Below are positions 16,468-35,312 of a stretch of 38,376 bases of DNA, one piece after another. Both the position numbers and the translations under genes were made by a program. This stretch comes from Oligoflexales bacterium (GTDB lineage: Bacteria > Bdellovibrionota_B > Oligoflexia > Oligoflexales > Bog-1112), in assembly GCA_045105515.1 (NCBI GenBank), contig JBGCDR010000234.1:1-38376 (forward strand), given 5' to 3'. Every line of letters starts with the position of its first letter. The first letter of the stretch is position 1. Under the pieces are notes generated by a model. That model saw only the letters and a list, made by a program, of their open reading frames with translations. It ran no database searches and had not been told where the DNA came from.

Positions 16468-18279
16468 ATGGCAATCATGACTGAAATAGAAGCTGACATT
16501 GAATTACTACAGGAATTCATGGAGGAAGGATCAGATATCCTGACCGAATGGGAGAGTTCAAGCATCGAACTTGAGAAGGAGCCCTTGCAAAAACCGCAAA
16601 TCCTGGCAAACCTTTCTCGCTCAGCTCATAACCTCAAAGGAGTCTCCAAAAGTATTGGCTTAGTTGCGTTCTCAGAATTTGTCCACAAAGTTGAAGATTT
16701 CATTGTCTTCCTCCAGGAAAAAGACAATATTCGTGTAGACCAAGCGATTCGAATCCTATTGGACAGCAAAGATATTATGCTCTCTTGGCTACAAAACGCC
16801 ATCGAAGATATTAGTTTTGTCCCCCAACAACGCTGCGAAGAAATAGATAAATTAATTGAAGAATATATACATAAAAAAGACCACACTGAGGACTCAAACA
16901 GTGCCGATGATGATGATTTTGAGTTTGTGGCACCTGCCACAACAGTAAGTGCTTCTAGTGAAGAAAATGTCGATTCCAAAGATGATGATGAGGAAGAAGA
17001 AGATGATGATGATGGATTTATCAAAATAGAACCTAATAATAAAAAAGAAGACAACGCCAAAACCGAAAACATTCAATACTCGAACAAAAGGAAGACCTTA
17101 CGAGTGGCTACTGACAAAATTGATTATCTGGTCAGGATGGCAGGAGAGCTTTCGATACATACTTCTATAATAGATAATTTCATGAACCGTGTAGCCCGGC
17201 AATTGGACTTTGTTCCGGATTCGGTAAATCAGATTACAAAGATTTCCCGAGTTATTCAACGAAGCGTACTCAGTCTTAGGCTGCAGCCAGTGAAAGATCT
17301 TTTCCAAAAGCTTGAAAGAGCCGCTTACGATGTTGCTCGCATTCAAGAAAAAAAGATTGATGTAGAAATACTAGGCGATGATATTGAGCTGGATAAATCC
17401 GTACTTGAAGCAGTAGGAGACTCATTGATCCATACTGTAAGAAATGCTGTCGACCATGGAATCGAAAAACCTGATGTTAGAAAAGAAAAAAATAAATTTA
17501 TTAAAGGCTTACTTACCATTGAAGCTATCAAGGAAATAGATGGGATAAAAATTATCATTGAAGATGATGGCAAGGGACTTGATAAAGAAGGGATCTTGAA
17601 AAAAGCCGTTGAACGTGGTTTGGTCAACCCTAGCACAAATCTCACTGCCGAAGAAATTCATGAGTTTATCTTCCTTCCAGGGTTTTCCACTGCGGAAAAA
17701 CTCTCGCAAATATCGGGACGTGGGGTCGGGATGGAAGTACTCAAACAATCGGTAGAAGCCATAGGTGGCAAGGTGAAAATCAGCAGCGAGCCAAACAAGG
17801 GAACTATATTGATGTTGTTGATACCGACATCGCTAAATTCTATCGAAGTACTAGGTATTAAATGCGGCAAGATAAAATACGCAGTTCCACTAGATAGTAT
17901 CGACGAGGTGATTCAGCTCAAAGACGACATGTGTAAAATGGTGGGTGGCCAGAAGATGATTGAGATCCGCGGTGAATTATTTCCTATTTATTCAATGGAG
18001 AGTTGCCTACCACCAGTTCCAGACTTTGACCAAGAGGGTGGGTCTGAGGACAGCTGGGAGCTTAGTAATATGGCAATCATGATAAAGTCAAATGGAAAAA
18101 ACATAGCATTCCAGGTGGATGGGGTATCTTCCCATTTTTCTGTAACCATTAAAAACTTGGCTGGAAGCTTAAAAGTAGATCAGACCGTAGGGGGAGCAAC
18201 TATCTTCAGCGATGGCACCCCTGGCCTCATCATAAATCCGAAAAAACTCTTAGCTAATGTTAACTTGGAGCTTAGTTAA
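16468..18279 (+). CDS. cheA: Chemotaxis histidine kinase CheA (copy 2)
   Basis: Hpt RSAHNLKG, acidic linker, HTVRNAVDHGIE, IEDDGKGL, FLPGFSTAE..ISGRGVGM, P5 domain. Confidence 0.96.
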   Translation: MAIMTEIEADIELLQEFMEEGSDILTEWESSSIELEKEPLQKPQILANLSRSAHNLKGVSKSIGLVAFSEFVHKVEDFIVFLQEKDNIRVDQAIRILLDSKDIMLSWLQNAIEDISFVPQQRCEEIDKLIEEYIHKKDHTEDSNSADDDDFEFVAPATTVSASSEENVDSKDDDEEEEDDDDGFIKIEPNNKKEDNAKTENIQYSNKRKTLRVATDKIDYLVRMAGELSIHTSIIDNFMNRVARQLDFVPDSVNQITKISRVIQRSVLSLRLQPVKDLFQKLERAAYDVARIQEKKIDVEILGDDIELDKSVLEAVGDSLIHTVRNAVDHGIEKPDVRKEKNKFIKGLLTIEAIKEIDGIKIIIEDDGKGLDKEGILKKAVERGLVNPSTNLTAEEIHEFIFLPGFSTAEKLSQISGRGVGMEVLKQSVEAIGGKVKISSEPNKGTILMLLIPTSLNSIEVLGIKCGKIKYAVPLDSIDEVIQLKDDMCKMVGGQKMIEIRGELFPIYSMESCLPPVPDFDQEGGSEDSWELSNMAIMIKSNGKNIAFQVDGVSSHFSVTIKNLAGSLKVDQTVGGATIFSDGTPGLIINPKKLLANVNLELS

Positions 18280-18282
18280 TTT

Positions 18283-19245
18283 ATGGAAGAAGCCAGCCTA
18301 GGGCATAATAGCACAGTCGGTATCAATACATCATTTGATACGCTCCATTTTATTTTCAAGCTCTGCGACTTCAGCTATGCCCTACCTTTTGACCAGGTAG
18401 ATTTCGTTGTGCCTTATCCAGAACTTACGAAATTGCCCAATGTAACCGATGACATTGTCGGTCATTTCGAATTTAAAGATTGGCCTATAATCGTAATTGA
18501 TAAAACTGCAAAGCTTAGCAAAAAGAAAAGTGAGCTTATTATTTTAAAGGTCCAAGACATTAAAGTTGGAATCTGTGTGGATGAACTCATGGGGGTTAAA
18601 CGACTTATTGCCTCGACAAATGATGTGGACCACGACACTCCCTTTCCCTATAATGCTATTTTTAAGACTGAAAATTCATTAACCTTCCGTCTTGACTTAG
18701 AAAAATTCCTCCCAGTTAACTATCTCAAAAAGCTTCTTGGTCATTTTAAACAGGACATTCAGTCTAACACTGTTCAAAACAGCAGTAGCGAAGAAATAGA
18801 AAATGAAAAAGATCAACAAGTTATTATTCGTATTGGCCCCCATCTCATTGCAGTAGAACTAACACAAATCAGAGAATTTCACCCAAGCTTCAATTGCACT
18901 CCCTCTCCTTCAAACAACAAAAGCTTGATTGGGACCATCAACCTTAGAGGGGAAATTGGCTGCATCTATGATGTAGGTTCGTTCTTCAATGGCACAAAGT
19001 CAAAACTCAATAAGACTTCGATTTTTATTCTCTACGATTTCCCTGATATTGGCTTAAATGGTGTGCTTGTCGATGAAATCATTTCAGTTAACCAAGATCA
19101 GACATACAAGATTATTGAAAAAGATCTTAAAATGGAAGGATTTCCTCAGGAATTTTATCATGGGATTGTATGTTTAGAAAATAGTGAAGCTCTGGTTTTT
19201 GATTTAAAAAGTTTGCTTAAAAATATAATAAAAAGTGAAAACTAA
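18283..19245 (+). CDS. cheW: Tandem CheW-CheW protein
   Basis: Two CheW-like units: [22 protein letters not shown] and [23 protein letters not shown]. Confidence 0.85.
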
Positions 19246-19274
19246 ACTTAAACTGCAGAAGGAAAAGAATAAAT

Positions 19275-20426
19275 ATGGATGACTTAGCAAAGATTGAAGA
19301 AAAACTAGGTAATTCTTCAAAATATCTGCCTATCTTGACTATTTTTATTCAGTTGGTATTCCTCACCACCTTGGTACTCTTTGATCACGGTATCGCTGAA
19401 ATAATTATTACTACTGCTGTATCAACAGCTCTCATAATTGCTTGTCAAAAGATGCTTTATCCGAAGCCGAAACGAGTCTATGAACCTTTTAAAAACCTCA
19501 TAGATAAATGGGAAAATCTCGCCAAAAGACTTAAGATCAACTTCGAAAATATGATTGCTGATCTTGCTGCAATCGAAATCGTTGTGAAGAAGCACAATGA
19601 ATCTTTGCAAGAAATAGATGGATCTTTGATGGTTATGCAGGAATTATTGAAAACAAATATCGAGATCTTTGGTGAAATCACCAAGGCAGTGACAGATAGT
19701 AGCATAGAAGGTAAGGATGTTATCAAACAAATGACCAATACCATGGACACACTCTCTACTACCGGTGTTCAGCTGCAAAATGTCTCAGAAATTTTCGATA
19801 GCATATCCTCTGAAACCAAAGTAATTAACGAAATTGTATTCAAGACCCAGCTTCTCTCCTTCAACGCCTTTCTTGAAGCTGCAAGAGCGGGCCAACACGG
19901 TAGTGGTTTTGTGGTTGTAGCCGAAGAAATTGGAAGTTTAGCAAAAAATAGTGGCAAAGCAGCAGAAGAAATTAGCGGTCTTCTATCAAATAGCCTAGAA
20001 AGTGTGGATTCCATATTGGGTAATACCAAGACTGGAATCAACAAAGTTAGAACAACTAACTCAAATGCTACAGGAATTTTCGAGAAAATAGTCAGCAACA
20101 CCTCTGATTACTTGAAAGCAATTACAGATGCAAGTGAAGATAATTTGAGCGGAGTCAATGATGCCATATCAATCACCTCTCAAATGCGACAAACGCTCAA
20201 AAAAACCAACGATATGGCTTTAACGACAAAGAGCTTATCAAATACAATCAGAGAAGACTGCAAGGAATTAGAGGATTCTATCTCTCCTTTTACTTTATTG
20301 TTTCATGAAGCTGAAAATTTAGAATCTGAAGCAAAGGGAAACAAAAATTTGAAATCTTTTTCTAAGAAGAAAACTCCGAGTGCAGATGATGAAATAATAG
20401 ACAATACTATAGACAAAGCTGGATAA
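19275..20426 (+). CDS. MCP with TM hairpin and no periplasmic sensor domain
   Basis: Two closely spaced TM segments, and [37 protein letters not shown]. Confidence 0.9.
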
Positions 20427-20431
20427 AAAAC

Positions 20432-21916
20432 ATGTTAAGCTTGCGCACAAAAGTATTTAGCTTCATTGTTATGACCTTAGTTTTAAGTGTCCTAGGTGGT
20501 TTTTATCTATACAAGCATTTTCTAGAGATCAAGAAAATTAATCAAATGGAAGTATCTGCGCATCGGGTTGAGATCACATCAGCAAGACTCAGTGATTGCC
20601 TACAATTTACCAACCTAAATTGCCACAAGCTAGCAACTTCTCTTATCAATGACTTAAGTGAAATGTATAACTTTCAAGGTCTTGTAGATAACCTAGGTAT
20701 GCGAGCTTCATTTGTTCTTAAAGACCTAAAAGATTCCAAAGAAAACTATGACCAAATTAAAACTGAACTAGAAGCTTTAAGTAAGTTACAACGGTTCGAT
20801 ATAAATCAACTAAATTTACATTTAAAGAACGTTGAATCAGATTCCTTGAATCTCCAAGCTGTAACCAGTAAGTTGACTGAAGTTTGGTACTTACGCATTG
20901 GTTTTCTTTTTGTTTTTGGAATTATGATAATGATCTTTATTATGATTTTTGGATTTCTTTTTCTCAAAAAGTGGCAGTATAGATTTGATGAAGTCATGAC
21001 ATCATACCGTAGCCAACAAGAGAAGCTACAAGAGATAAAAAAGAAAGCAAATCAATTTGAAGAAACTTTTGACAACTTCTCAGAAAGAGAGAATACAAGC
21101 TTAGTCAAATCAAACGAACTCATAAATATAATCAAAGTACACAGTAAAAATCTCAATACCCATGTCAATAATCTATCTTCAGAAGGTAGTAAATCAAAGC
21201 TGAATGACACTAATACTCAATTACCAAGTGAGAAGCTAAAATTTATAATTGAACAGATTCAAGACTGCAACAAAATTGTAAATGAACTCAAAAAAACAGT
21301 GGGAAATATTAATACGAACATCGATACTATCAAAAGCATATCTCTAAAAACTCAACTATTAGCTATCAATGCTGCTGTTGAGGCTTCAAAAGCTGGTCAT
21401 CTTGGCAAAGGATTCACAGTAGTAGCTGAAGAGATGGGAAAACTTTCAATCGTAAGTCGGGATGCAGCAAATGCCATCAAAGATCATATCCAACAACATG
21501 AAAAATTACTCAAAAAAGTAGATAAATATACCTACGATGCCGTTGACAACGGACTGAATACCCTTGAGGCATTTGATAAAATTGCCGACCAAAGTTCTTC
21601 TTATATAAACTCTATCATCGTTAAATCAACCAAGATACCTATGATCAATGCAAAATACACCGGTAAATTTAATCTTTTGTCAAACGAAGTAAAAGCTTTG
21701 AACGAATTAAATGATCTACGCCAACAAGTGCAGGAGCTTTCTCAAGAAATCAACCGGCAGGTCAAGAAACAAATTAAGAATGAAGACGATTTAATTAAAA
21801 ATCTAACACAACTTGTGGCAGGTAATCAGTATTTGTCGATAGAAAACTTTGAAAAATACTTTTTTGACTTAAGCTCTTCTAAGAAAAAGAAAAAAATCAA
21901 AAGATTGGTTTCTTAG
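20432..21916 (+). CDS. MCP with ~125-aa helical periplasmic domain
   Basis: TM1 and TM2, and [34 protein letters not shown]. Confidence 0.9.
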
Positions 21917-21984
21917 CAAATATTAACTGAGCTAATATATTAACTATGAATAGTTTATAATAATAGCAATAAAACAACTAAGGA

Positions 21985-22401
21985 GTGAGTATCATGTTCC
22001 AAAAAGAGATTAAAATCCTAATTGTTGATGATATGTCAACAATGCGGCGAATTGTTAAAAACGGCTTAAATGATCTAGGGTATGATACGATCGAGAATGC
22101 TAAGAACGGTCAACTTGGTTGGGAAATTATCGAAACATCCCATAGCGAGGGCAGTCCCATCGAATTGGTGATGTGTGATTGGAATATGCCGGTATGTACT
22201 GGTTTAGAGCTCCTACAAAAAGTACGTGCTGATGAGAAAACTAAAGATCTACCATTTATTATGCTTACTGCAAAATCCGAAGAGAAAGATATGCAAGAAG
22301 CTCAAGATGCTGGGGTTAGCGCTTACCTAACAAAACCTTTCTCAGGTGGGGAACTCGAAAACACTCTGAGAGAAGTATTCGAAAAGAAAGCTGCCGCTTA
22401 A
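21985..22401 (+). CDS. cheY: CheY
   Basis: KILIVDDMSTMRRIV..CDWNMP..TGLELL..LPFIMLTA..YLTKPF. AAGGAG RBS fits ATG 21994. Confidence 0.93.
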   Translation: MSIMFQKEIKILIVDDMSTMRRIVKNGLNDLGYDTIENAKNGQLGWEIIETSHSEGSPIELVMCDWNMPVCTGLELLQKVRADEKTKDLPFIMLTAKSEEKDMQEAQDAGVSAYLTKPFSGGELENTLREVFEKKAAA

Positions 22402-22416
22402 ACTCTGGAGGCGAGA

Positions 22417-23586
22417 ATGACTAATAAAGATCTGAGGATTCTAATTCTCTCCTCGGATAGCGCCAACATTCAAACTTTGGTTAAAATTTTAGCTCAGTTA
22501 GGCTATCTGAATATAATTGTAAAAGAAGATGGACTAACAATTTCAAGTTGGATCAAAGAAAATCCTTTCGGATTTCTAATCTGCGATATGAGCATCAAGA
22601 ATATATCGGGATGGACTCTCATCAGAGAACTAAAAGCCTCACCTGATATTCCTAATTTCCCTAATATTCTTGCTGGCTCAGAGCCGGCGCCAGCTGGTGA
22701 AGAAGAGTTAAAAAGCTATGGTGTGGTGAAGTATTTGCTAACCCCATTTAACGAAAAAAATCTTAAATTCCTTATCAACTCCACCATCTTACTGTTTAAC
22801 TCATCGGGTACCATCGAGAACAAATTTACCCACGCAAAAGATGCATTGATTGCCCAAAAATCTCATGAAGCAATAGAAAAATATGAGGAACTTAATAACC
22901 TGACTGATCGTGGGGAGCGAAGTAGCATCGGCCTTTATCAAGCCCATGTTAAATCAGACAATATGTCCAAAGCTATAGAAGCCATAAACTCAATTAACCC
23001 AAAAAGAGAACTCAGTCCCTCAGCTCTTATAGTTAAGATAAAAATATTAGCTGATCAGAGGAAAATAAACGAAGCAATCGAGCTTGCTCAAATACTCTTG
23101 GAAGAAAAAATGCCACGGGTACCCTATTTTTATCAGAAAAGCCTCAATATCTTTATGAACTTAAATGAATTTAAATTTAGCAAAAAGATCTGCCAACTAG
23201 CGATAGAAAAGGAATTTAAGGTTGAAGACTTCTATTTATCATTAGCAAGGATAGAATATCAAACTGAAGATTTCAATAACACCCTCGAAATTTTGGACAA
23301 AGCAGAAACTATTTTTGGTCAAACTAGTGAGTTGTACAACCTTAGAGGGGTTTGCTACAAGAAAAAAGGCTTATTAGACACAGCTAAAAGCTGCTACGAG
23401 CGAGCTATAGAATTAGCACCGCAAGACTCAAAGCTTTATTTTAATATTTCATCTTGTGCTATTGCCATGAAATCCTATGATGAAGCAAAGCAATACCTTG
23501 AACAGTGTTTAAAAATCGAACCAAAATTCGAAAAAGCCCAGGAAAAAATTGATGAAATAGATAACTACCTAACCAGTAATTCATGA
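22417..23586 (+). CDS. Atypical receiver plus TPR-repeat protein
   Basis: N-terminal REC-like fold (LRILIL..FLICD..SGWTLIRELK..YLLTPF). TPRs: ELYNLRGVCYKKKG..YERAIELAP, LYFNISSC..CLKIEP. GGAGG RBS. Confidence 0.88.
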   Translation: MTNKDLRILILSSDSANIQTLVKILAQLGYLNIIVKEDGLTISSWIKENPFGFLICDMSIKNISGWTLIRELKASPDIPNFPNILAGSEPAPAGEEELKSYGVVKYLLTPFNEKNLKFLINSTILLFNSSGTIENKFTHAKDALIAQKSHEAIEKYEELNNLTDRGERSSIGLYQAHVKSDNMSKAIEAINSINPKRELSPSALIVKIKILADQRKINEAIELAQILLEEKMPRVPYFYQKSLNIFMNLNEFKFSKKICQLAIEKEFKVEDFYLSLARIEYQTEDFNNTLEILDKAETIFGQTSELYNLRGVCYKKKGLLDTAKSCYERAIELAPQDSKLYFNISSCAIAMKSYDEAKQYLEQCLKIEPKFEKAQEKIDEIDNYLTSNS

Positions 23587-23731: not shown

Positions 23732-25006
23732 GTGCTGCGGCTATGGTATTTAATAGTTTTGATTCTCTGGATAAACAACTTGCAAACTCCTATTGCTGCT
23801 TCACCTATGTTTGACTACATCACTACTGTTTTGAAAGAAGACCTGCCTACAAAAGCTTCAAGGAAAGAAAAAGCTGCAGCTGTTTTTGAACTAGAACAAA
23901 ATTCAGGGCAACTTTACCCTCAGATCAATCTGCGAGGTCAATCTGGCTTTGCGGCTTCTCCCGAATCCTCAAACAATAACAACAATTTGGGGCTATTCTT
24001 GAACCAGGTAATCTTTGACAAGAGCAAATCCACATACTTGTCTCTGAGTGAGTCATTGCTTGCAGAAAAAGAATTAGCAATAAGAATAAAGCAGGAACAA
24101 ACCATATTAGAAGCTGGCTTGATCTTCATTAATTACGTAGAAGCATTGAAACGTGAGAGAATTTCCGTTGAGCACGCTCTCAGATCTCTCGACCAAAGAA
24201 AGTTTGTAAAAGATCAGCTTACTGGGGGAGGGGCAACGCAAATTGACCTCCAAAATGTCGAAATTGCTATAAAAAGCTTAGAACTCAATCAACTCAATTA
24301 TAAGGCTGCAAGAAGACTTGCGGCCTTAGCTCTACTCCAAAGGTCAAGGAATAAAGCTCAAATACCCGAATTTCAATCCCTACCTCAATTCAATTTTCCT
24401 TTAGTTCTTATGCCACCAGATCAAGCCAAGAAATACTTGGAAAAAAAACCAGATATTTCATTGATCATCGCACGTATAAAATCCTTGGATGCTCAGATCC
24501 GTTTTTCAGAAGCAAAGAAATTCCCAATTTTAGGATTTGAAGCTTCACTAGAAACAAGTGGTGTTGAAGCGAGTGATAATGTTGCCAGCCTCAAACTATC
24601 TGCGAGTTGGAACTTGTACGACGGTGGAACTCAAAGAGCAGAGAATGCTGGATTGATCGAACAGAAAAAAAGCTTAGCTCTCACATACCGGCACTTATTC
24701 GAAACTTACTATGGTAGATACCGAGAAACATTAAATAGATACGAAGCTTCCCTAGCAAGCTTTAAGCTTAGCCGAGAATTGAAAGGCCACTACAAGGAAT
24801 TTTTGGTACAGAAATCAATCCAGTACCGTGGAGGTCTAGTGACTATTGAGAACATTTTAGGTGCCCAATCCAACCTTTTCGACATCGAACAGCAGTTACT
24901 TGGAGCTGAAATCGCAATGACTAAGGCAACTTGGGAGCTCATGGGCCATCTTGGCTTACTACAAGCTATTGGTTTAAAAGCCTTATTTATTCCACCAACG
25001 GAATAA
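23732..25006 (+). CDS. TolC-family outer-membrane efflux protein
   Basis: Signal peptide, LYPQINL..LNQVIFD, FPILGF..ASWNLYDGG, YRGGLVTIENILGAQ. Adjacent to T1SS genes. Confidence 0.9.
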   Translation: MLRLWYLIVLILWINNLQTPIAASPMFDYITTVLKEDLPTKASRKEKAAAVFELEQNSGQLYPQINLRGQSGFAASPESSNNNNNLGLFLNQVIFDKSKSTYLSLSESLLAEKELAIRIKQEQTILEAGLIFINYVEALKRERISVEHALRSLDQRKFVKDQLTGGGATQIDLQNVEIAIKSLELNQLNYKAARRLAALALLQRSRNKAQIPEFQSLPQFNFPLVLMPPDQAKKYLEKKPDISLIIARIKSLDAQIRFSEAKKFPILGFEASLETSGVEASDNVASLKLSASWNLYDGGTQRAENAGLIEQKKSLALTYRHLFETYYGRYRETLNRYEASLASFKLSRELKGHYKEFLVQKSIQYRGGLVTIENILGAQSNLFDIEQQLLGAEIAMTKATWELMGHLGLLQAIGLKALFIPPTE

Positions 25007-25260
25007 AATCTTTCCAAAACACCTCAAAATCAGACTACAGTAAGTTTGCCTCGCAAATAAATAGAGGATCTAACAATCTGTTTATACTCCATTATTACAA
25101 TAAGCTAACATCTTCCTCGGCTATCCCGAACTCCGTGAATAATAGAGGATGATACACAGTGGCGGAGCTGTTTTGCTCCCTAGCTTGTATCGGATCCGTT
25201 GCTTGGTACGTGGTTGTGAAAGAGCTCGGAATATTAAAAACAACCTTAGGGGACAAAAAA

Positions 25261-28200
25261 GTGGCAAAAGGCAATAGCATCATAGACAAGCTCAAGAAAA
25301 TGCTGAAAAACGACTCTCCTTCAGAAAACTCCCAAGAGACGGTCGAGGTCGTTGATCCTTTCCTCAACAAAAGTGTTGAGGATGCCAATAACCTACAAGT
25401 CCAGGCTGATGATTCCAACGAATCCAAAAGCACTGGTGGTGCAGACGCTGCGGATATAGCCAGCATCAGTTCCCAAAGCGTCAAAGCAAATGAGTTCGCT
25501 GCAGCTGAAATAGCTAGAAGTGATTCTGACATCGATGCCAGCAGAAACAGTAGCAGTGAAGCTGCTCTCGGAAACAGTGGGATTGCTGCTAATGAATTTG
25601 TTGGCGAAAGTTCCAATGAGCTCGGTGATATCAGCCAGCTGGCAAGTTCAGCAACTGAACAATCAAACCAATTTACAGAGAACGCCGAGCAGGTAATTGC
25701 TCAAGAAAATGAGTTCTCTGATGTTGAAGCTGCAAGAGTTAGCCAAGATCAAAATGATTTCAGCGACAGCTTAGCAGCAAATAATGACTCCTCAGCCAGT
25801 GGCGAAGGAGCAAGCCTTGTAAACCAAGGTTCTGATATTAGTGAACCAGCAGCTTCTAGCGATAAACCTGCTGCGCAACCAAGCGATAGCATTTCGGCTA
25901 CAGATGATGAAGCCGCACAATCTACTAGCCCGGAAGCTGCCTCTGCTGGCAACACAGAAGTTACCTCTTCCAGCATTGAAGACTCAAGCGGGAATACAAT
26001 CGAAAATGAGCAACATGAGCCCGTAGTAGCTGAACCAGCTCAAGAAGCGGCAGCTGAACCAGCTCAAGAAGCGGCAGCTGAGCAAGAAAGTGAATCTAAC
26101 TCTGAACCTATCCAGACACCAGGTGAAGAGACTAACATCCAGGCAGAGCAAGCTGGCGGGGATGACACTCTCCACGGCGGCAGAGGCGACGACATCATGC
26201 TCGGGGGTGGCGGTGACGACGTCCTCAAAGGCGGCAGGGGTGACGACATGCTTCACGGGGGCAGCGGAGACGATGTCCTTAAAGGCGGCAGAGGCGACGA
26301 TGTCCTTGCTGGCGGCTCTGGTGATGATGTGTTGCGCGGTGGCCGCGGTGATGACATCCTCGCTGGTGGCTCCGGAGATGACACCATTCATGGTGGGAGA
26401 GGCGACGATCTCATCGTTGCTGGCGGTGGTGGAAACGACACCATTTATGGGGGAAAAGGGGATGATACTCTCAAGCTTTCGGGAGACTTTGAAGACTACA
26501 CCTTCATCAAGAACGATGATAATTCTCTGACCATTGTTGACAATGTTGAGGGAAGAGATGGCCAAATGACTGTGTCAGGTGTTGAAGAGTTTTCATTTGC
26601 TGACCAAAGCGTGAGCGGCACAGATTCCTTGGAAATAAGCAGTCCAGAATCAATTAGTAGCTCCATTGATATTGGAGCTACCACAGCAAGTGTTAGTAGC
26701 GCTAACACTGAAAGCACTCTTGCAGCAAATACTGAAAGTACCCAAGCTACAAGCCAGACTGCAGATATCCTCAAGACTGACAACGATGTGAGTTTAAGAG
26801 GATCAGGTGATGATGATCGCTTGGTAGGAACCAAGGGAGATGACACCATAAAAGGTGGCAAGGGTGACGATGTCCTGAAAGGACGCGATGGCAATGACTC
26901 ACTCTCTGGTGGAAAAGGTGATGACCGATTGCACGGCGGAAAGGGTGATGATGTTCTAGCCGGTGGAAAAGGTGATGACCGACTACACGGCGGAAATGGC
27001 GATGATGTCCTAGCCGGTGGAAAAGGCGATGATCGTTTGCACGGCGGAAATGGCGATGACTCACTCGCTGGCGGAAAAGGTGATGACCGATTACACGGCG
27101 GAAAAGGTGATGATGTCCTAGCCGGTGGCAAAGGTGATGACCGACTACACGGCGGAAAAGGCGACGACTCACTCGCTGGCGGAAAAGGCGACGATAGACT
27201 GAGCGGTGGAAGAGGTGACGACGTTCTTGCTGGTGGCAAGGGTGATGATAGATTGAGTGGTGGACGTGGCGATGACTCACTCGCTGGTGGCAAAGGTGAT
27301 GACCGACTACACGGCGGAAATGGCGATGATGTTCTAGCCGGTGGAAAAGGCGATGATCGTTTGCATGGCGGAAATGGCGATGATTCACTCGCTGGCGGAA
27401 AAGGTGATGACCGACTACACGGCGGAAAAGGTGATGACGTCCTTGCTGGTGGAAAAGGCGATGATGTACTTTCCGGTGGCAAGGGTGACGATATCCTCGC
27501 TGGCGGAAAAGGTGATGACCGACTACACGGCGGAAAAGGTGATGACTCTCTCAGTGGTGGTGCTGGAGACGATAAACTACATGGCGGTCGCGGGGACGAT
27601 GTTCTAGCTGGTGGTCAAGGCGATGACAAACTTAACGGCGGTCGCGGGGACGATTCTCTCAGCGGTGGAGCTGGAGACGATAAATTACACGGCGGTCGCG
27701 GGGACGATGTTCTAGCCGGTGGTCAAGGCGATGATAAGCTGAGCGGTGGACGCGGCGATGATATCCTTGCTGGTGGTCAAGGCGATGACAAACTTAACGG
27801 GGGACGCGGGGATGACTCTCTCAGCGGTGGCGCTGGAGACGATAAATTGCACGGCGGACGCGGGGACGATGTTCTAGCCGGTGGTCAAGGCGATGATAAG
27901 CTGAGCGGTGGACGCGGCGATGACTCTCTTAGCGGTGGTGCTGGAGATGATAAATTGCACGGCGGTCGCGGAGACGACATTCTAGCTGGTGGTCAAGGTG
28001 ATGATAAACTTAGCGGGGGGCGCGGCGATGACATCTTAGCTGGTGGTCAAGGCGACGACAAACTTAGCGGGGGACGCGGTGACGACATTCTAGCTGGTGG
28101 TCAAGGCGACGATAAATTACACGGCGGTCGCGGTGATGACATCTTATCTGGTGGTCAAGGCGATGATGTGCTGAAAGGTGGAAGAGGTGATGACACCTTG

Positions 28201-28680
28201 CTCGGTGGTGAAGGTGACGACAAATTAAATGGCGGACGTGGTGATGACATCCTATCTGGTGGTCAAGGCGATGATATCCTAAATGGTGGAAGAGGCGATG
28301 ACACTTTACTGGGTGGCGAAGGCGATGACACCCTAAGAGGTGGAAACGGCGACGATATCATGTATGGCGATTCAATCAATGATGCTGCACAGGATCTGAG
28401 CGATTTACTTTCACTATCTAATCAATCTGCGGATTATGGCTCAAACTTCTCTCTCTCTCAGGTACAAGGGACTGCAGTTGACGGTGCCAACCAAGATTGG
28501 ACAGCAGCTGCAGAAGATTCCAATAGTCATGTTGAATCCGGATCTTCTGATTGGATTGCGATGGATGGCCAGGTTGCATTGGAAGAGAATGATGGATCTG
28601 CAGAAGTAGAAACGCTTGATGATTTAGGATCACAAGATGGTATTTCTGCTTCTGACGATGACTTTCAGTTACCCGTATAA
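25261..28680 (+). CDS. Large RTX-repeat (GGxGxD) calcium-binding T1SS substrate, likely start GTG 25261
   Basis: About 12 + 58 nonapeptides GGxGDDxLx, acidic low-complexity N-terminus, no Sec signal, AGGGGA RBS before 25261. Confidence 0.93.
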   Translation: MAKGNSIIDKLKKMLKNDSPSENSQETVEVVDPFLNKSVEDANNLQVQADDSNESKSTGGADAADIASISSQSVKANEFAAAEIARSDSDIDASRNSSSEAALGNSGIAANEFVGESSNELGDISQLASSATEQSNQFTENAEQVIAQENEFSDVEAARVSQDQNDFSDSLAANNDSSASGEGASLVNQGSDISEPAASSDKPAAQPSDSISATDDEAAQSTSPEAASAGNTEVTSSSIEDSSGNTIENEQHEPVVAEPAQEAAAEPAQEAAAEQESESNSEPIQTPGEETNIQAEQAGGDDTLHGGRGDDIMLGGGGDDVLKGGRGDDMLHGGSGDDVLKGGRGDDVLAGGSGDDVLRGGRGDDILAGGSGDDTIHGGRGDDLIVAGGGGNDTIYGGKGDDTLKLSGDFEDYTFIKNDDNSLTIVDNVEGRDGQMTVSGVEEFSFADQSVSGTDSLEISSPESISSSIDIGATTASVSSANTESTLAANTESTQATSQTADILKTDNDVSLRGSGDDDRLVGTKGDDTIKGGKGDDVLKGRDGNDSLSGGKGDDRLHGGKGDDVLAGGKGDDRLHGGNGDDVLAGGKGDDRLHGGNGDDSLAGGKGDDRLHGGKGDDVLAGGKGDDRLHGGKGDDSLAGGKGDDRLSGGRGDDVLAGGKGDDRLSGGRGDDSLAGGKGDDRLHGGNGDDVLAGGKGDDRLHGGNGDDSLAGGKGDDRLHGGKGDDVLAGGKGDDVLSGGKGDDILAGGKGDDRLHGGKGDDSLSGGAGDDKLHGGRGDDVLAGGQGDDKLNGGRGDDSLSGGAGDDKLHGGRGDDVLAGGQGDDKLSGGRGDDILAGGQGDDKLNGGRGDDSLSGGAGDDKLHGGRGDDVLAGGQGDDKLSGGRGDDSLSGGAGDDKLHGGRGDDILAGGQGDDKLSGGRGDDILAGGQGDDKLSGGRGDDILAGGQGDDKLHGGRGDDILSGGQGDDVLKGGRGDDTLLGGEGDDKLNGGRGDDILSGGQGDDILNGGRGDDTLLGGEGDDTLRGGNGDDIMYGDSINDAAQDLSDLLSLSNQSADYGSNFSLSQVQGTAVDGANQDWTAAAEDSNSHVESGSSDWIAMDGQVALEENDGSAEVETLDDLGSQDGISASDDDFQLPV
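26029..26081 (+). repeat. 24-bp perfect tandem repeat (AEPAQEAA x2)
   Basis: gctgaaccagctcaagaagcggca twice, plus gctga. Confidence 0.9.
26152..26478 (+). repeat. RTX block 1 (~12 x 27 bp)
   Basis: GGRGDD/GGSGDD nonapeptides. Confidence 0.9.
26800..28365 (+). repeat. RTX block 2 (58 uninterrupted 27-bp units)
   Basis: Counted from GSGDDDRLV to GGNGDDIMY, 58 x 27 = 1566 bp. Confidence 0.92.
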
Positions 28681-29028
28681 TACCGTCTTAACAACGGTTT
28701 TTAGTGAATCAAAGTCAACTGGTTTGGTTAAAAATGCTGCTGCTCCTTTTTGATTTGCTTCATTAATCGTTTCTTCACTTGCATCTGCACTAATCAAGAT
28801 AACAGGGATATTTGGATGCTTCGCTTTCAATTCATCCATCATTACTAGCCCATTTCCATTAGGCATATAGATATCCGACAAAATACAATCCGGAATTTCA
28901 TCCACAAGCAGTGCGAAAGCCGAGGGAATATCCTCGGCTTCAAAGCACTTGTGACCCATCCTATGCAAATCGTTCGATAACTTTTTTCTTTGTGAAGGTA
29001 CATCTTCAATGATCAACACTTTTGCCAA
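28669..29028 (-). CDS. Single-domain response regulator (CheY-like)
   Basis: KVLIIED..ILSDIYMP..PVILISA..FLTKP. TTG start with GAGG RBS. 12-bp convergent overlap with the RTX gene. Confidence 0.92.
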   Translation of the reverse strand: MAKVLIIEDVPSQRKKLSNDLHRMGHKCFEAEDIPSAFALLVDEIPDCILSDIYMPNGNGLVMMDELKAKHPNIPVILISADASEETINEANQKGAAAFLTKPVDFDSLKTVVKTVLYG

Positions 29029-29115
29029 AAAGTGAACCTCATATTTCGTTATTCTAACTACTTATATTTTAACCACAAACTCTCACTACATCAATTTTAA
29101 AGCAGTTCATTACTG

Positions 29116-29142
29116 TAAAAAAATTGCTGGATAGTCCGATTG
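29116..29142 (+). promoter_or_regulatory. Sigma-28-like promoter for the ABC/hemerythrin/HlyD operon
   Basis: TAAA-N15-TCCGATTG. Confidence 0.5.
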
Positions 29143-29198
29143 GGAAACACATAGAATCGCAAGAACCCTGGCTATGTAATACAAGGTTTAAAAGCTCG

Positions 29199-30914
29199 AT
29201 GAAGCTATTAGGTCAAACTGCAGTCATTAAACTGTCATTGAAAAGATCTTTAGATCTGATCCTGGCAACTTTTATGATAAACCTGCTTGGTTTAGCTCTA
29301 CCTTTGAGCCTAATGCAAGTGTATGATCGCATCATTCCCAACAAGGGATTAGATTCGCTAACATGGCTAGTCATCGGTTGTAGCATTGCCATTTTTCTTG
29401 AAGCTCTCCTTAGATTTTGCCGGGATCAGGTTAGCAACTGGATTGGAAGTATCTATGAACACAAACTAGACTATAACATTTTTAAAAAAATACTAAATTC
29501 AGACCTTAAAGCAGTTCAATCTGAAAACACCAGTGCATTAATGGAGAAAATCAGCCTAGTTTCTACTCTGCAAAGTTTCTATTGCAAACAATTTTTCGAG
29601 ACCATTATTGAAATCCCATTTTCATTTCTATACCTGTATACCCTAGCATTCTTAAACTTCGGGCTTGCAATGTGGATTTTTGGGGTCGTTTTAATCATGT
29701 TTGCAATCGTTATTGTCTTAAGACCTTTTTATAAGAGAGCAAGAATCTATCGTAGCAAAGCAAATAGTGAAAAACTTGACATCATCATGGATGGAATAAG
29801 CAAGATTCACTTTGTGAAAGCATTCGCTCAGGAAGATAAATACGTAGCAAAAATTGAACAAGATCAAGCGAAACAAAGCAAAGCTGATTTTTGGGTAAGC
29901 ATTTTAGGTTCCATACCAGGTAATGTTGGCATGCTCATTTCGCAGCTCACTCTTTTTATAATTTTAGGCCTGGGAGCGGCGGATGTTATCAACGGTAGGA
30001 TGACGATCGGGGTCCTGACCGCATGCATGATGATTGGATCAAGGCTCGTCCAACCAGCTCAAAGCCTAGCTAATTATTGGCTTAGAAGTTCTGAATTATC
30101 GTATGCTAAAGAAAAAGTTTCAGAAATTTTTAAGTTGCCTGATGCAGATACAGAGGAAAAAGTCAGTGTTGATGCTGATGTCAGAGGCGACATTTATATT
30201 GAAAACGTTTTTTATCGAAATACTGAAGAGTCGAAATTCCTGCTTGAAGATTTAACTCTTAAGATCGAAGAAAAGGAAATGATCGGTATTTCAGCATCTG
30301 AATCGGAATATGCTTCAAAACTACTACAGCTAATTGCTGGCCTTTCAAAACCGGAGCGAGGAAACATCTATATTGATGATCTTGGACTTAGCTGCTGGCC
30401 AGAGGAAACTTTAAGAACAAGAGTCGCGTTCCTTTCTGGAGAGCCATCACTGGTCAAAGGTACCATTATCGAGAACCTAACTCTTTTTGATCCGCAAAAA
30501 ACTGAGACAGCGCTAGATACTGCAATGATGGTTAACTTAGACGAAGCTGTTTCACAGTTACCGAAGGGTTACGATACCATGCTTGATCGGGAATCTAAAA
30601 AATCAATTCCTGCAAGCCTTATTCAATTAATTGCCTTGACTAGAATTTTAACTGAACGCCCTAGCATCATTTTACTAGACAACGCAGATGCACAATTTGA
30701 CCAAAAATCACTCCAAGTTTTTTCTGAAATTATTCAGAAACTTAAAGGAAAAACCACTATTATCATGGTTACTGACAATGAAGATCTTTTAAAAAAATCA
30801 GACCGTATTATTTATATAAAATCCGGAAAAATTTCGGGAACCTCTCGTTTTTCAATCTTATCAGCTGTAAAGGAAAGTAAGGTAAAGATTTGGAAAAAGG
30901 GGGTAATCGCTTGA
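29199..30914 (+). CDS. T1SS ABC transporter subunit 1 (TMD plus degenerate NBD), likely start ATG 29199
   Basis: INLLGLALPLSLMQVYDRIIPN, INGRMTIGVLTACMM, GTIIENL, LPKGYDT. Walker A replaced by SASESEYAS. Confidence 0.92.
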   Translation: MKLLGQTAVIKLSLKRSLDLILATFMINLLGLALPLSLMQVYDRIIPNKGLDSLTWLVIGCSIAIFLEALLRFCRDQVSNWIGSIYEHKLDYNIFKKILNSDLKAVQSENTSALMEKISLVSTLQSFYCKQFFETIIEIPFSFLYLYTLAFLNFGLAMWIFGVVLIMFAIVIVLRPFYKRARIYRSKANSEKLDIIMDGISKIHFVKAFAQEDKYVAKIEQDQAKQSKADFWVSILGSIPGNVGMLISQLTLFIILGLGAADVINGRMTIGVLTACMMIGSRLVQPAQSLANYWLRSSELSYAKEKVSEIFKLPDADTEEKVSVDADVRGDIYIENVFYRNTEESKFLLEDLTLKIEEKEMIGISASESEYASKLLQLIAGLSKPERGNIYIDDLGLSCWPEETLRTRVAFLSGEPSLVKGTIIENLTLFDPQKTETALDTAMMVNLDEAVSQLPKGYDTMLDRESKKSIPASLIQLIALTRILTERPSIILLDNADAQFDQKSLQVFSEIIQKLKGKTTIIMVTDNEDLLKKSDRIIYIKSGKISGTSRFSILSAVKESKVKIWKKGVIA

Positions 30915-32233
30915 CTCAATTAGGAAAAATCGACACTGTGAAAAAGGCGAAAACAAAAAAACCTACCAAAATGATAAAAGATCATGTTTGGAATAAATGG
31001 ATTACTCATTCAGCCAGAACCTATGCAGATATTCAAGATGTTGTACCGCAAGTGGAATTACCATCAATATCAACAGGCCATCAACAAATTCTTGAACGCA
31101 CTCTTAGTATTAAAGATTTTATCCAATCGAACTCTGGAAAATCAATTAATCAAAAAAGTGTGTACGAATGTCGCAGATTAATTTCAGAGCTACTCGACTA
31201 TGCAACTTTATTTTTCGACTATGAGGACAAGCTCCTAAGAGAACTTCAGGTACCAACAGCAAGGGAACACATTACGGCTCATCGTGAACTTGAACATGTG
31301 ATTAGCGAAGTTCTTAACCGCTTTGTGCATGGCAAGATTGGCTTAAGCTCCGATCTATATATATCGTTATTAGATACTATCTTGGATCACATCAGAACAA
31401 TAGATGTTCCTTCATATCGTATTTCAAACTTAAAAAAATTCCTAAATCAAGAACACACTTACGACAGCCTGAGGCCAGCTCTGAAGCTTTCAGGAATTCA
31501 ATTGATCGATGCTCCTATTTATTCGGTAACTTCAAATATTCTCTTGGCAATTAGTGATAAAAAATCAAAACCAGAAGCCTTGAGAGAAACAGTTCTAAGT
31601 AGTCTTAAGGAATATATTTCTACAGAGGAACAATTTCTAAAAGAATGCAATAATATTAGCAATTTTAGCCAACAACAGACCGAGCACGAAGAATTAATTG
31701 AAGTTGCAGAAGATTCCGAGTCAGAGAACGATTTCAAAGCATTGCTGCAACAATGGTTGTACCACACAAATCTACTGGATTTTGAGACCCACAACTTCAA
31801 AAATTGGTCAAAAATAACTTTACAAGTCACTGAAGAACTCGACGACATCGAACATATATTTAAAATTTGCAAACATGATATTATGGCCTCTCATCATAAA
31901 GAGATCCTCGAATTTTTAATTGAGACGCCAGTGCTTAGTGATACCAGTAGTACTGAAGAATCTAAACAGAAGTTCATTGATGACTTTGAAAAAAAGCTAA
32001 ATAGAATGTTCAAACTAGAAGAAGAAATATTAGCTTTTTCGAACATACATCGCTTTTTTACGGTTAGCCATAGTTTTGAGCATAAAAAAATTAAAAGCCA
32101 AGTCATCTATTTGAGAAAGATTCTTAGCACCAATCGTTACCGATTTTCGCAAAACTTAAAAACAAGTCTAATAGAAAATCTGTTGATCTACTTTAACTAT
32201 CAGGACATCTTGCTTTATGGAGAAGAGCGTTAA
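30911..32233 (+). CDS. Protein with three tandem degenerate hemerythrin-like domains
   Basis: Repeated H..(x)FxxEE..HxxxH..HxxxxD spacing, e.g. GHQQ/FDYED/EHITAH/DHIRTID. TTG overlaps the upstream TGA (TTGA), with an AAGGGGG RBS. Confidence 0.8.
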   Translation: MTQLGKIDTVKKAKTKKPTKMIKDHVWNKWITHSARTYADIQDVVPQVELPSISTGHQQILERTLSIKDFIQSNSGKSINQKSVYECRRLISELLDYATLFFDYEDKLLRELQVPTAREHITAHRELEHVISEVLNRFVHGKIGLSSDLYISLLDTILDHIRTIDVPSYRISNLKKFLNQEHTYDSLRPALKLSGIQLIDAPIYSVTSNILLAISDKKSKPEALRETVLSSLKEYISTEEQFLKECNNISNFSQQQTEHEELIEVAEDSESENDFKALLQQWLYHTNLLDFETHNFKNWSKITLQVTEELDDIEHIFKICKHDIMASHHKEILEFLIETPVLSDTSSTEESKQKFIDDFEKKLNRMFKLEEEILAFSNIHRFFTVSHSFEHKKIKSQVIYLRKILSTNRYRFSQNLKTSLIENLLIYFNYQDILLYGEER

Positions 32234-34289
32234 TTCTCTTTACAAAAAATGTATTGTCCCACTTCTCAATGAGCTAAATTGGTCTGGAGATCTATCACGT
32301 TTTGATAATACTCCCATAGAGAATATCCAACACCTATTAAACAGCCTGGCTGAGATACGATTTATTGGCAACATTAAATCTACACGATTTGATCAAATTG
32401 ATTCAACGCACTTACCTTGCATTTTTGTGCCAAATACTACCAAAGCGCCACTAGTTATCACCAAATTAGAGGGTAAGAAAGTATTCTTTTTCAATAGTGG
32501 CCTTGAACGCTATGAAGTTAGCGACAAAAGACGTATTAGAGGACAGGTTTCATATTTTAGAACCCTTGGCATGGAAGAAAAGACCTTGGAGCAAAAGCGC
32601 TCAAAATGGTTCTTTTCAATGCTAAAAAGATTCAAAGCTTACGTAAGTCTTGGAACTCTTATCACTTCGACGATTGCCATCCTTGGGGTCGTATCGCCTT
32701 TCTTGGTGATGCTAGTGTTTGGACAAATAGCTGCATCGTCCGATTCGGGTAATCTCAATTTTCTTTGGATTGGAATATTACTCTATCTATTGGCACTAAT
32801 TGGCTTTAGAATGCTAAGATCTTACACCTTGGGATATGTAGGATCAAGAATAGGCTTTCTAATTTCAAATCAAGTCTTAAAAAGAATATTTCTATTACCG
32901 CCTTCTTTTACAGAAATGTCTTCCCTGGGAGCTCAATTAGCTAGGATAAAAGACTTCGAGTCCATGCAAGATTTTTTTTATGGACAATCCTTGCCTACAC
33001 TCTTCGAAATACCCTTTTTAGGCATATTAGTTGGAATATTATTTTACCTCGGTGGACCGGTTGGCTACGTCCCCATAGCTTCGGGTCTAACTCTGGCTCT
33101 CCTCAGCACCATTGTTTTTAAACTTCGTAAGCAGAACGCAGATATGAGCCAAAGCTTTAAACAAAAAAAAGAATTTCAACTAGAAACTTTGAACAATTTA
33201 CGAAATATCAAGGCCATGCGTATTGTGGAGATATGGCTCGAGCGTTACAGAGTAGTTTCAGCAAGTGCCTCCTTACAATCTTATTATTCCACATTTTCAG
33301 GCAGTTTTATGGAAGCCTTTGCAAGTGCAATCATTTCATGTTCTGGCTTGGCAACTATGGCAATCGGAGTTAATGAAATCATAAATGGTCGAATGACTGC
33401 TCCTGAGTTAATGGGTTGCATCCTTCTTAGCATGAGAGTTCTTGCACCTGTCAAGGGAACTTTTAATTTGACCAATCAGATGAGTAAGCTTAACAATAGT
33501 GTTAAACAGCTTGACATGTTAATGAACCTTCCCATTGAAAGTCGTGAAGAGCAGAATACTAAGTCATTTGAACGTCCTTTAGAAGGTCATGTATCATTTA
33601 AAATGGTGTCGCTACGGTATACCCAAGATTCTCATCCAGCTCTCCTTGGAGTTTCTTTTGATATTAAACCTGGTGAAACTGTGATGATTACAGGCCACGG
33701 AGGTGCAGGAAAAACTAGTATATTAAAGCTAATTATGGGTATGTACTTCCCCCAGTCTGGACAAATCTTAGTTGACAAGCTCAATACCAAGCAGCTAAAT
33801 CCTAGCCTATTAAGAAAAAAAGTCGCATACCTACCTGAGCGATCATTTCACTTTAAAGGTACTATTAAAGATAACTTTCTATCAGCGAACCCCAAAGCAA
33901 ATGACCAAATGATAAGCGAAGCTCTCGCGCAAACAGGACTCCTTGTTGATATTGAGAAACTTAGCGAGGGTATTGACACAGAGCTAAGCCCGAGTTTATT
34001 GCAACAAGTAAGCCCATCTTTTTTGCGCAGACTCAATATTTCTATGCTATTTGTTAAAGAGTCAGGACTTTGGCTTTTAGATAACCCCAGTGTAGACCTC
34101 GAAGACATGCATACACGGCAACTATTGGCTACTTTGCAAGCTTATAAGGGCAATACAAGCATTATTATCGCAACACAGAACCTTAATTTTTTAAATATTG
34201 CAGATAAGGTTCTATACCTTAATGCGGGACGAGTAACTGCATTTGGAAAACCAGAAGATGTTGTAAAGCGTCTTAGTTCAGCTGCTTAA
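32217..34289 (+). CDS. T1SS ABC transporter subunit 2 (C39-like N-terminal domain, TMD, NBD)
   Basis: N-terminal PLLNELNW..HLPCIFVP, TMD, Walker A GHGGAGKTS, Walker B LWLLDNP. Confidence 0.92.
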   Translation: MEKSVNSLYKKCIVPLLNELNWSGDLSRFDNTPIENIQHLLNSLAEIRFIGNIKSTRFDQIDSTHLPCIFVPNTTKAPLVITKLEGKKVFFFNSGLERYEVSDKRRIRGQVSYFRTLGMEEKTLEQKRSKWFFSMLKRFKAYVSLGTLITSTIAILGVVSPFLVMLVFGQIAASSDSGNLNFLWIGILLYLLALIGFRMLRSYTLGYVGSRIGFLISNQVLKRIFLLPPSFTEMSSLGAQLARIKDFESMQDFFYGQSLPTLFEIPFLGILVGILFYLGGPVGYVPIASGLTLALLSTIVFKLRKQNADMSQSFKQKKEFQLETLNNLRNIKAMRIVEIWLERYRVVSASASLQSYYSTFSGSFMEAFASAIISCSGLATMAIGVNEIINGRMTAPELMGCILLSMRVLAPVKGTFNLTNQMSKLNNSVKQLDMLMNLPIESREEQNTKSFERPLEGHVSFKMVSLRYTQDSHPALLGVSFDIKPGETVMITGHGGAGKTSILKLIMGMYFPQSGQILVDKLNTKQLNPSLLRKKVAYLPERSFHFKGTIKDNFLSANPKANDQMISEALAQTGLLVDIEKLSEGIDTELSPSLLQQVSPSFLRRLNISMLFVKESGLWLLDNPSVDLEDMHTRQLLATLQAYKGNTSIIIATQNLNFLNIADKVLYLNAGRVTAFGKPEDVVKRLSSAA

Positions 34290-34300
34290 GGAGTCATTGC

Positions 34301-35269
34301 ATGTTTCAAAATACTGACGAACATATTTCAAGCTCTATTTTGTTGGAAGAAAAAGGTGGTCTTGGTATCCAACGTTTCATATTTTTATTCTCGTTTTTCT
34401 TAGTTGGGTCTTTCGTTCTCTGGGCCATTCATACGGAATTGGACGAAGTAGCAGTCGGAAACGGAATGTTGGTACCTAAAGATAGCATACAGGTGGTCCA
34501 ACATGTTTACGGAGGCAAGATTAAAAAAGTATTCATAAAAGATGGTGCTCATGTCAAATCTGGTCAAAATTTATTCGCCTTCGATCCTAAAGAAGCCAAC
34601 GATTCACTAAAGCGTATCAAAAGCCAAATAAAATCAGAACTAGTCAAATATCGATCTCTAGCTGCAGAGTTGAAAGAAAAGAAAAAACTGGCTCGCCAGG
34701 GTGTTTTCCCCAGAATGCAATTGAAAAGCCTACTTAGAACTCTTAAGGAAAGCGAAGGAAAGATAACAGACTTTAAAATAAGGCGTAATATCTTAAGGAA
34801 AAACCTTCAGGATTTAACATTGAAGGCACCAATTTCTGGGGTCGTTTTCAACTTAAAAGCTAAAAAATCCAGTTATGTGAGCAAACCAGGAGAAGTTCTT
34901 TTAGAGATCGTCCCTGATGGCAATAAACTCATCGCTGAAATCAATATAAAACCAGCTGATATTGGCCATATCAGAACTAAACAAGCGGTTATGCTAAAAT
35001 TCAGCACCTATGACTTCAACCGTTATGGAGGGCTGAAAGGCATGATTGCATCTATCTCCCCTAGCACCATCATTGCTGGTGACAACCAACCTGTTTACAA
35101 GGCTATCGTCTTGATAGAGCGCACTTCCTTGACAAATGATGCTTCTAAAACGCCTCTAATTCCTGGTATGACTTTAACTGCTGATATCAGGGTAGGCTCT
35201 AAGTCTATAATGGAGTACTTACTAAAACCAATTTTTTCATCTGCCCAAAGTGCTTTTAGAGAACGATAA
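34301..35269 (+). CDS. HlyD-family T1SS periplasmic adaptor
   Basis: WA..ELDEVAVGNG..VVQH..GG.IKKVFIKDG, LKAPISG, PGEVLLEIVP, DIGHI, YDFNRYG, LIPGMT..YLLKPI..AFRER. Confidence 0.95.
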   Translation: MFQNTDEHISSSILLEEKGGLGIQRFIFLFSFFLVGSFVLWAIHTELDEVAVGNGMLVPKDSIQVVQHVYGGKIKKVFIKDGAHVKSGQNLFAFDPKEANDSLKRIKSQIKSELVKYRSLAAELKEKKKLARQGVFPRMQLKSLLRTLKESEGKITDFKIRRNILRKNLQDLTLKAPISGVVFNLKAKKSSYVSKPGEVLLEIVPDGNKLIAEINIKPADIGHIRTKQAVMLKFSTYDFNRYGGLKGMIASISPSTIIAGDNQPVYKAIVLIERTSLTNDASKTPLIPGMTLTADIRVGSKSIMEYLLKPIFSSAQSAFRER

Positions 35270-35312
35270 ACAATCAGAGAATACAGGAACCATTCAGATA
35301 TCAGATATATGA

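Follow-up and report, generated by a model that had tools for sequence, protein, structure and literature searches.

Type I secretion systems (T1SSs) are treated as three-part machines, with control placed mainly at transcription, at substrate binding or, for the Lap adhesins, at periplasmic proteolysis. One contig of an Oligoflexales bacterium (GenBank assembly GCA_045105515.1, here genome G000; contig JBGCDR010000234.1, positions 1 to 38,376, the whole of which is the window analysed here) encodes all the type I parts by Pfam and NCBIfam, namely an ATP-binding cassette (ABC) exporter, a HlyD-type adaptor and a TolC-type channel, together with a protein of three hemerythrin domains (Hr) whose gene lies between those of two different ABC half-transporters, ABC1 and ABC2. 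The best reading of these sequences is that Hr serves an asymmetric T1SS as a sensor or accessory subunit; a T1SS variant with a dedicated multi-hemerythrin protein is real and apparently undescribed. No account of a hemerythrin-equipped T1SS was found in the literature searched by titles and the starts of abstracts, a coverage that leaves out subscription journals and the 2008 hemerythrin surveys; the word hemerythrin is absent from the first 300,000 of the 747,818 characters of PMC8277102, and the words ABC, transporter and secretion are absent from the available main text of PMC4919030, whose supplements with domain architectures may bear on novelty.

The canonical RTX T1SS (HlyB-HlyD-TolC, with LssB/LapB-type ABC proteins) shares with this locus an ABC fold with a C39-like domain, HlyD, TolC and an RTX cargo (PMC8277102, same portion). 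For both window ABC proteins the best NCBIfam model is TIGR03375, far below its cut-off (304 and 351 versus 693 bits), and the window differs from the canonical system in its two unequal ABC halves, their degenerate ATP sites and the extra hemerythrin gene, while the cargo of its homologues is mostly non-RTX. Two ABC genes are also found in the four-component MARTX T1SS of Vibrio (RtxB, RtxD, RtxE, TolC), in which both ABC proteins are needed for export (PMC3034196, in excerpt); hemerythrin has 0 occurrences in the same excerpt of this review, and the window cargo has no MARTX, effector or autoprocessing domains (PF00353 only), although the two systems are set apart here by description and not by sequence comparison. 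NHLP bacteriocin exporters (TIGR03796/TIGR03797) have two ABC genes and HlyD in common with the window, which nevertheless scores far below the cut-off, has no peptide precursor and has a large cargo. The asymmetric heterodimeric exporters TAP1/2, TM287/288 and TmrAB likewise show reciprocal degeneracy, with one working and one dead site (PMC7756269, in excerpt), but in the present system the Walker A Lys is gone from the dead site as well, and the window's lineage has additionally lost the catalytic Glu and His of its 'working' site. Finally, the hemerythrin sensors DcrH (a methyl-accepting chemotaxis protein, MCP), Bhr-DGC, Bhr-HD-GYP and the P1B-5-ATPase, a membrane ATPase whose C terminus carries a hemerythrin-like domain, couple the hemerythrin fold to an output protein, as proposed here, and hemerythrin domains switch fused enzymes by redox state, one class of them on the P1B-5 ATPase transporter (PMC9388753, in excerpt). 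The Hr family differs from these sensors in its one to four tandem domains, in a Trp-rich unit of its own and in a protein-export ABC partner, which that excerpt does not list; the window copy, moreover, lacks the ligands of the O2 site.

Gene order makes a strong genomic coupling of Hr to the ABC pair very likely. Fourteen loci with a true family member were obtained, of which 13 are distinct because L022 and L025 have the same sequence. The Hr gene lies directly behind ABC1 or is fused to it at 13/13 loci other than the window's, ABC2 directly follows Hr wherever the contig is long enough (11/11), and hlyD follows ABC2 in 10/11, the last carrying it divergently upstream. The initial annotation had proposed hemerythrin as an exporter component, and this is borne out by its recurrence across distant phyla and its fusion to ABC1 in some of them. 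That Hr is instead a co-transcribed passenger, scavenging O2 or storing iron during surface-protein production with no physical role in the exporter, we consider quite improbable: named hosts do include microaerophilic or anaerobic, hemerythrin-rich groups (30 Hr-like matches in genome G132) and adjacency alone can yield fusions, but the position between both ABC genes is fixed across phyla, the genes overlap, in-frame fusions have arisen repeatedly, and no family member was seen away from twin-ABC loci among the loci examined. Within the window's own phylum the Hr family is present in 2/131 genomes, G000 included, and within the phylum of G131 in 4/88, the same four genomes holding the Hr and ABC2 families side by side; the alphaproteobacterial order of G132 gave one true Hr match in 301 genomes and the phylum of G133 gave 1/401, the two largest searches having scored 4–5 candidates per genome, with misses possible. 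Identities of ABC2 and Hr are correlated (Mantel r 0.82, n = 11), a value owed to two divergent rows and to kinship, and we do not rely on it. At L020, a gene for a c-type cytochrome (7454-7894; CxxCH, by eye) lies directly upstream of ABC1, a weak hint of redox context.

The family to which Hr belongs is a dedicated one and comprises about 80 clusters at 50% identity. Searched with a profile, 1.84 billion representatives yielded 168 matches at E ≤ 0.001 and 79 at 1e-10. The family alignment is made up of 80 proteins of 400–500 amino acids, 78 of them from the best 150 of the 168 matches and two being close relatives. A word-index homologue search gave just three near relatives and a search among longer proteins gave no fusions, although fusions exist; both blanks reflect insensitivity. 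The family architecture is three hemerythrin units, each with a short Trp-rich helical segment ahead of it, the first of these segments being the best conserved and the second and third less so. Three hemerythrin domains had been annotated in the window Hr, and the family alignment and a confident model built from it (pLDDT 92.9, pTM 0.89; predicted local and global accuracy scores) agree on three four-helix bundles, of which Pfam scores one only; modelled from three sequences alone, the protein reached a pLDDT of 49.8. Its fold matches the bacterial hemerythrins 4xpw (Z 15.9) and 2avk (Z 15.6, the value for the hemerythrin domain of DcrH), the best match having a root-mean-square deviation of 2.5 over 131 residues, with domain 3 barely covered by the fold search. 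Foldseek with the same model gave no match at E ≤ 0.001, and no solved multi-hemerythrin arrangement is among the structural matches listed. Domain number varies across the family from one to four in tandem, and five proteins are fusions with hemerythrin at the C terminus of the ABC1 half, three of them with one hemerythrin domain (P0077, P0086, P0182) and two with three (P0048, P0061), across linkers of about 30–40 residues. Source names include Fibrobacterales, Desulfovibrio, Humidesulfovibrio, Magnetococcales, SAR324, Desulfobacterales and Bacteriovoracaceae, Magnetospirillum sp. SS-4 being a named isolate genome with a family member; the plasmids searched gave no family match. Matches at E ≤ 1e-30 in G314, G319 and G921 (contig C9) proved to be generic tandem hemerythrins, which lie away from any T1SS and lack the family's N-terminal unit, and were left uncounted.

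The metal ligands separate the window copy from most of its family. Its three domains read HFEHHHD, IYEQHHD and HMEHHYD against the canonical HHEHHHD, and the complete H-HxxxE-HxxxH-HxxxxD set is present in 0/3; at least one complete di-iron ligand set occurs in 87/105 family proteins, most often in domain 3 (75). The window Hr forms a seven-protein clade with its six closest relatives (support 99, FastTree), in which ligand 2 is hydrophobic in 21/21 domains, that is, the second His of the O2-binding iron is lost, and which almost throughout retains the bridging Glu/Asp as well as the other iron's three positions. These substitutions are common to relatives 80–83% and 22–25% identical. The two-His iron of hemerythrin is the one that binds O2 (PMC9388753, in excerpt). 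Because the second His of this iron is lost, canonical O2 binding by the window Hr is unlikely, and we infer a single-metal site in each domain; the O2 gating first proposed for this copy lacks support in so far as it calls for canonical O2 binding, none of the three domains having the full ligand set.

A reading in which the tri-hemerythrin has a structural or chaperone role throughout the family, stabilizing a dead-site dimer of nucleotide-binding domains (NBDs) or holding the unfolded acidic cargo or its metal, with structural and not sensory metal sites, seems to us unlikely. In several branches the gene remains in place as its ligands decay (13/105 proteins have neither a full nor a Gln-variant site), the Trp-rich unit 1 is more conserved than units 2 and 3, and a single domain is enough in three fusions. 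Most ligand positions are, however, 84–100% conserved in proteins just about 30% identical, and close Hr-less systems exist. Hr is probably O2- or redox-linked in the family and metal-binding or structural in the window copy.

Twin degenerate ABC proteins had also been annotated, and both halves indeed show motif degeneracy. The window ABC1 has a Walker A without Lys, a D-N Walker B and no H-loop His; ABC2 has an intact Walker A, D-N in place of D-E in Walker B, Gln in the H-loop and a degenerate signature, and is thus without the catalytic Glu and His. By sequence, neither of the pair's two composite sites is a canonical hydrolysis-competent ATP site, whereas most homologues outside the window's order keep one that is near canonical. 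The Walker A Lys of ABC1 is present in 0/15 Hr-linked rows (14 distinct) versus 12/12 rows of Hr-less sisters, and the Hr-linked ABC1s mostly retain a signature-like LPxG..Q. The ten Hr-linked ABC2s outside the window's order have an intact Walker A (10/10), mostly D-E (8/10), an H-loop His in 6/10 with two more shifted by one, and a degenerate signature. Reciprocal degeneracy of this kind between two different halves characterizes an asymmetric heterodimeric exporter. All 12 Hr-less sister loci that were read have the order ABC1-ABC2-hlyD, and in 3/12 the two halves are fused in a single open reading frame (ORF) of about 1,300 codons; these fusions argue that the halves pair, and ABC1 and ABC2 probably form a heterodimer. 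A complex prediction of Hr with the ABC1 NBD, the ABC2 NBD and the ABC2 N-terminal domain scored 0.69, against 0.71 for a control in which the ABC2 NBD was replaced, and is not used for or against binding. The split ABC1 genes of L018 and L020 were considered as programmed frameshifts but appear to stem from a homopolymer error and from a stretch that is duplicated. Among the Hr-less heterodimeric T1SSs of L038-L049 (the order of G132, and G594) are ABC2 forms with N-terminal extensions of more than 1,000 residues; our literature searches found no paper on this common type. ABC2-profile matches occur in 2/401 genomes of the phylum of G133.

Within the window's own order the system takes a distinct form. 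A quick tree places the window, L015 and four Hr-less loci in one clade in both ABC halves (support 99 and 97), outside which the other Hr-bearing loci fall, a topology that fits an ancestral Hr having degenerated or been lost in this order. In 5/5 readable rows of the order, ABC2 carries D-N and lacks the H-loop His. HlyD has 321–326 residues throughout the clade (window, L002, L010, L011, L012, L015), compared with mostly 420–465, and 366–372 in two, in Hr-bearing homologues outside it; the short HlyD co-occurs with the ABC2 losses. Genome G000 itself has a second twin-ABC T1SS without Hr, on contig C390 and probably continued on C353 (L001, L002), in the order receiver-tolC-ABC1-ABC2 followed by hlyD. 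No cargo was identified next to this second system, and its hlyD has a single-domain hemerythrin at a distance of about 9 kb (L002:2082-2486). Three relatives also hold a twin-ABC system without Hr. Such a pattern could point to decay of the system in the lineage of the window, with Hr nearing loss and the pump nearly inactive: of the clade's six loci, two have a degenerate Hr and four have none, the L015 Hr sits on a very long branch, and ABC2 has lost its catalytic residues as described. We regard decay as improbable, since every ORF is intact and tightly coupled, the ligand substitutions are common to near and distant relatives alike, and 17/19 differences in ABC1 and hlyD (10/10 in ABC1) are synonymous in sister-strain contigs, although these are single contigs of depth below 5. 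The intact, coupled ORFs and the synonymous differences suggest that the window exporter is still under selection.

The likely cargo is the RTX protein encoded behind tolC. It is the sole ORF of the genome with at least four GGxGxD repeats, and has 66 of them in two nonapeptide blocks that span 594 of 1,173 residues (51%); the first approximately 335 residues are acidic and of low complexity, so that the description 'all-RTX' in the initial annotation overstates its content. Pfam found no enzyme or toxin domain. The start may alternatively be the GTG at 25261, and this ambiguity, with an uncertain hydrophobic N terminus, clouds assessment of a Sec signal. An RTX cargo is likely for the window but is not general, as homologous cargoes are long, acidic, Pro/Ala/Glu-rich, low-complexity proteins without RTX repeats. 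The C terminus of the window cargo is acidic, with two Trp at −59 and −41, and is a candidate secretion signal; most homologous cargoes with a complete C terminus have two Trp about 70–40 residues from the end of an otherwise Trp-poor chain. A position-specific scoring matrix (PSSM) for these Trp, built from six other cargoes, ranked the window cargo 4 of 4,368 genome ORFs, with the window cargo excluded from the build and spacing limits chosen with all cargoes in view. We consider a twin-Trp C-terminal export signal suggestive only. An N-terminal LDELTVLQ-like motif was seen in the cargoes L016:15065, L017:13451, L019:5710, L020:14936, L025:15013, L028:696-5627 and L041:3-1124; it is missing from the window cargo and occurs also at an Hr-less locus, and a retention or recognition element is possible.

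Taken together, these patterns are best explained by a T1SS whose motor is an ABC1/ABC2 heterodimer and whose dedicated cytoplasmic motor subunit is the tri-hemerythrin, sensing in most of the family and derived here, an explanation to which we give about an even chance. In the Hr subfamily, ABC1's own ATP site would be dead and one composite site would work, made of the Walker A, Walker B and H-loop of ABC2 and the signature of ABC1. Hemerythrin would be carried on the C-terminal NBD face of ABC1, covalently in fusions and otherwise probably docked, and in most of the family its di-iron centres would sense O2, redox or iron state and modulate the export of a surface protein that is long, acidic, largely unstructured and recognized by its C-terminal twin-Trp signal. 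Whether Hr binds and gates the exporter is, in our estimate, evenly balanced. The window copy, with most ligands of its other iron still present, would be a derived form, likelier to hold one metal ion per domain or to act as a structural regulator than to sense O2, with an ABC2 that may bind ATP but probably hydrolyses it poorly. More tentatively, and with odds somewhat against it, the family may place a secretion ATPase under post-translational control by a bound multi-hemerythrin that replaces the lost second ATP site, so that O2, redox or iron sets the export of a surface filament, the di-iron O2 sensor having become, in the window's lineage, a sensor with a single metal on a pump that may hydrolyse little or no ATP.

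We caution that several observations weigh against a sensing motor subunit and its proposed signal. Ligand 4 is Gln in 61 first and 62 second domains of the 105 family proteins, so that not even typical members qualify as textbook O2 carriers, and the gene neighbourhood is out of view for 94/105 rows in these ligand counts. An ABC2-family match occurs in 136/301 genomes of the order of G132 against the single real Hr match; because Hr-less twin-ABC systems are far commoner, Hr is dispensable for the exporter chassis. Nor does a dead ABC1 site require Hr, since four Hr-less loci of the window's order, one of them in its own genome, share it, and the missing Walker A Lys goes back to a single phylogenetic event and does not count as repeated evidence. 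As to the export signal, the PSSM missed two other candidate cargoes, and a hidden Markov model from five other cargo C termini failed to find the window cargo.

If the proposed control is real, a dedicated cytoplasmic metal-centre subunit on an ABC motor would give T1SSs a new control point. Hemerythrin sensors would likewise gain a new output, those reviewed being chemoreceptors, cyclic di-GMP enzymes and P-type ATPases (PMC9388753, in excerpt). The family offers natural experiments, with Hr free or fused, of one to four domains, with ligands intact or lost, alongside Hr-less sisters and in a named isolate, and the analysis also brings out a very common, apparently unstudied heterodimeric T1SS with cargo motifs of its own.

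The initial annotation further had the adjoining chemotaxis (che) pathway, together with O2 sensing by the window copy, gate export. This we consider very improbable. The 145-bp adjacency and the embedded CheY-like receiver speak for it, as does a receiver-domain gene at the cluster border in about 7/15 loci by reading, versus 3.3% of genome ORFs, although kin are not independent. However, in 10/10 loci with at least 14 kb of DNA no cheA, cheW, cheR or MCP gene was detected when the che proteins of the window were used in BLASTP (one 36-bit low-complexity match was ignored, and three short contigs were not judgeable). Orthologues of the receiver-TPR gene, the last of the che operon, occur in 3/5 relatives searched and lie beside a T1SS in 0/3, the border receivers of other loci are not orthologous (the window receiver is the best match in 0/6), and the O2-site ligands are lost. 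The che operon looks like an accidental neighbour of the exporter, and a link between the antisense receiver and the exporter is unproven. The window has two divergent chemosensory operons, 8809-16249 (−) and 16468-23586 (+), the former including a double-CHASE3 MCP and ending in a CheD-like/receiver/CheB fusion of 488 residues.

All seven annotated ORFs and their order were recovered, with identities that agree with Pfam and NCBIfam, as was the 145-bp gap between the che operon and tolC (23586 to 23732), which contains a 10-bp hairpin (Table 1). The ABC1-Hr-ABC2 overlaps were likewise recovered, at 4 nt for ABC1/Hr with the Hr start at 30911, or 25 nt if Hr starts at 30890, from where its frame is already open, and 17 nt for Hr/ABC2. 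The likely ATG start of ABC1 is 29199. In ABC2 the C39-like region comprises about 120 N-terminal residues, in which the catalytic Cys motif is absent by eye.

Table 1. Features of the hemerythrin-bearing T1SS locus and the adjoining operon (aa, amino acids; TMD, transmembrane domain).
Feature	Coordinates	Strand	Evidence
TolC-family outer-membrane channel, 424 aa	23732..25006	+	PF02321 E 3e-20, TIGR01844 E 1e-16
RTX protein, likely cargo, 1173 aa	25159..28680	+	PF00353, sole Pfam match
Stand-alone CheY-like receiver, 119 aa, divergent from ABC1	28669..29028	-	PF00072 E 2e-24
ABC1 half-transporter (TMD + NBD, without C39-like domain)	29124..30914	+	LssB-like, E 2e-90
Tri-hemerythrin accessory protein (Hr), 440 aa	30911..32233	+	Family search, ligand table, model, fold matches
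ABC2 half-transporter (C39-like region + TMD + NBD)	32217..34289	+	LssB-like, E 2e-104
HlyD adaptor, short form, 322 aa	34301..35269	+	TIGR01843 E 2e-69, above cut-off
Adjoining chemosensory operon: cheA, double cheW, two MCPs, cheY, receiver-TPR	16468..23586	+	Pfam; context only

The T1SS genes are co-oriented, as had been described, but the cluster is not a single unit: the antisense receiver interrupts it and, judging from orientation, divides it into at least two transcription units, tolC-RTX and ABC1-Hr-ABC2-hlyD. Promoter and terminator scans of the locus gave chance-level results only, and intergenic RNA folds were not significant (z −0.8 to 0.5). Logan contigs of two sequencing runs match 28400-35363 without differences, the runs being possibly the source sample and so not independent. 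Downstream, a repeated element at 35310-35750, with a stop-interrupted frame and copies on contigs C196 (93%) and C91 (80%), resembles by eye a transposase remnant. A Cys-rich lipoprotein-like ORF without a Pfam match lies at 36874-37899 (−) and has a 63% paralogue on C156, and at the other end of the window (1286-4799) a Ser/Thr-kinase-like protein adjoins a SelO-family adenylyltransferase.

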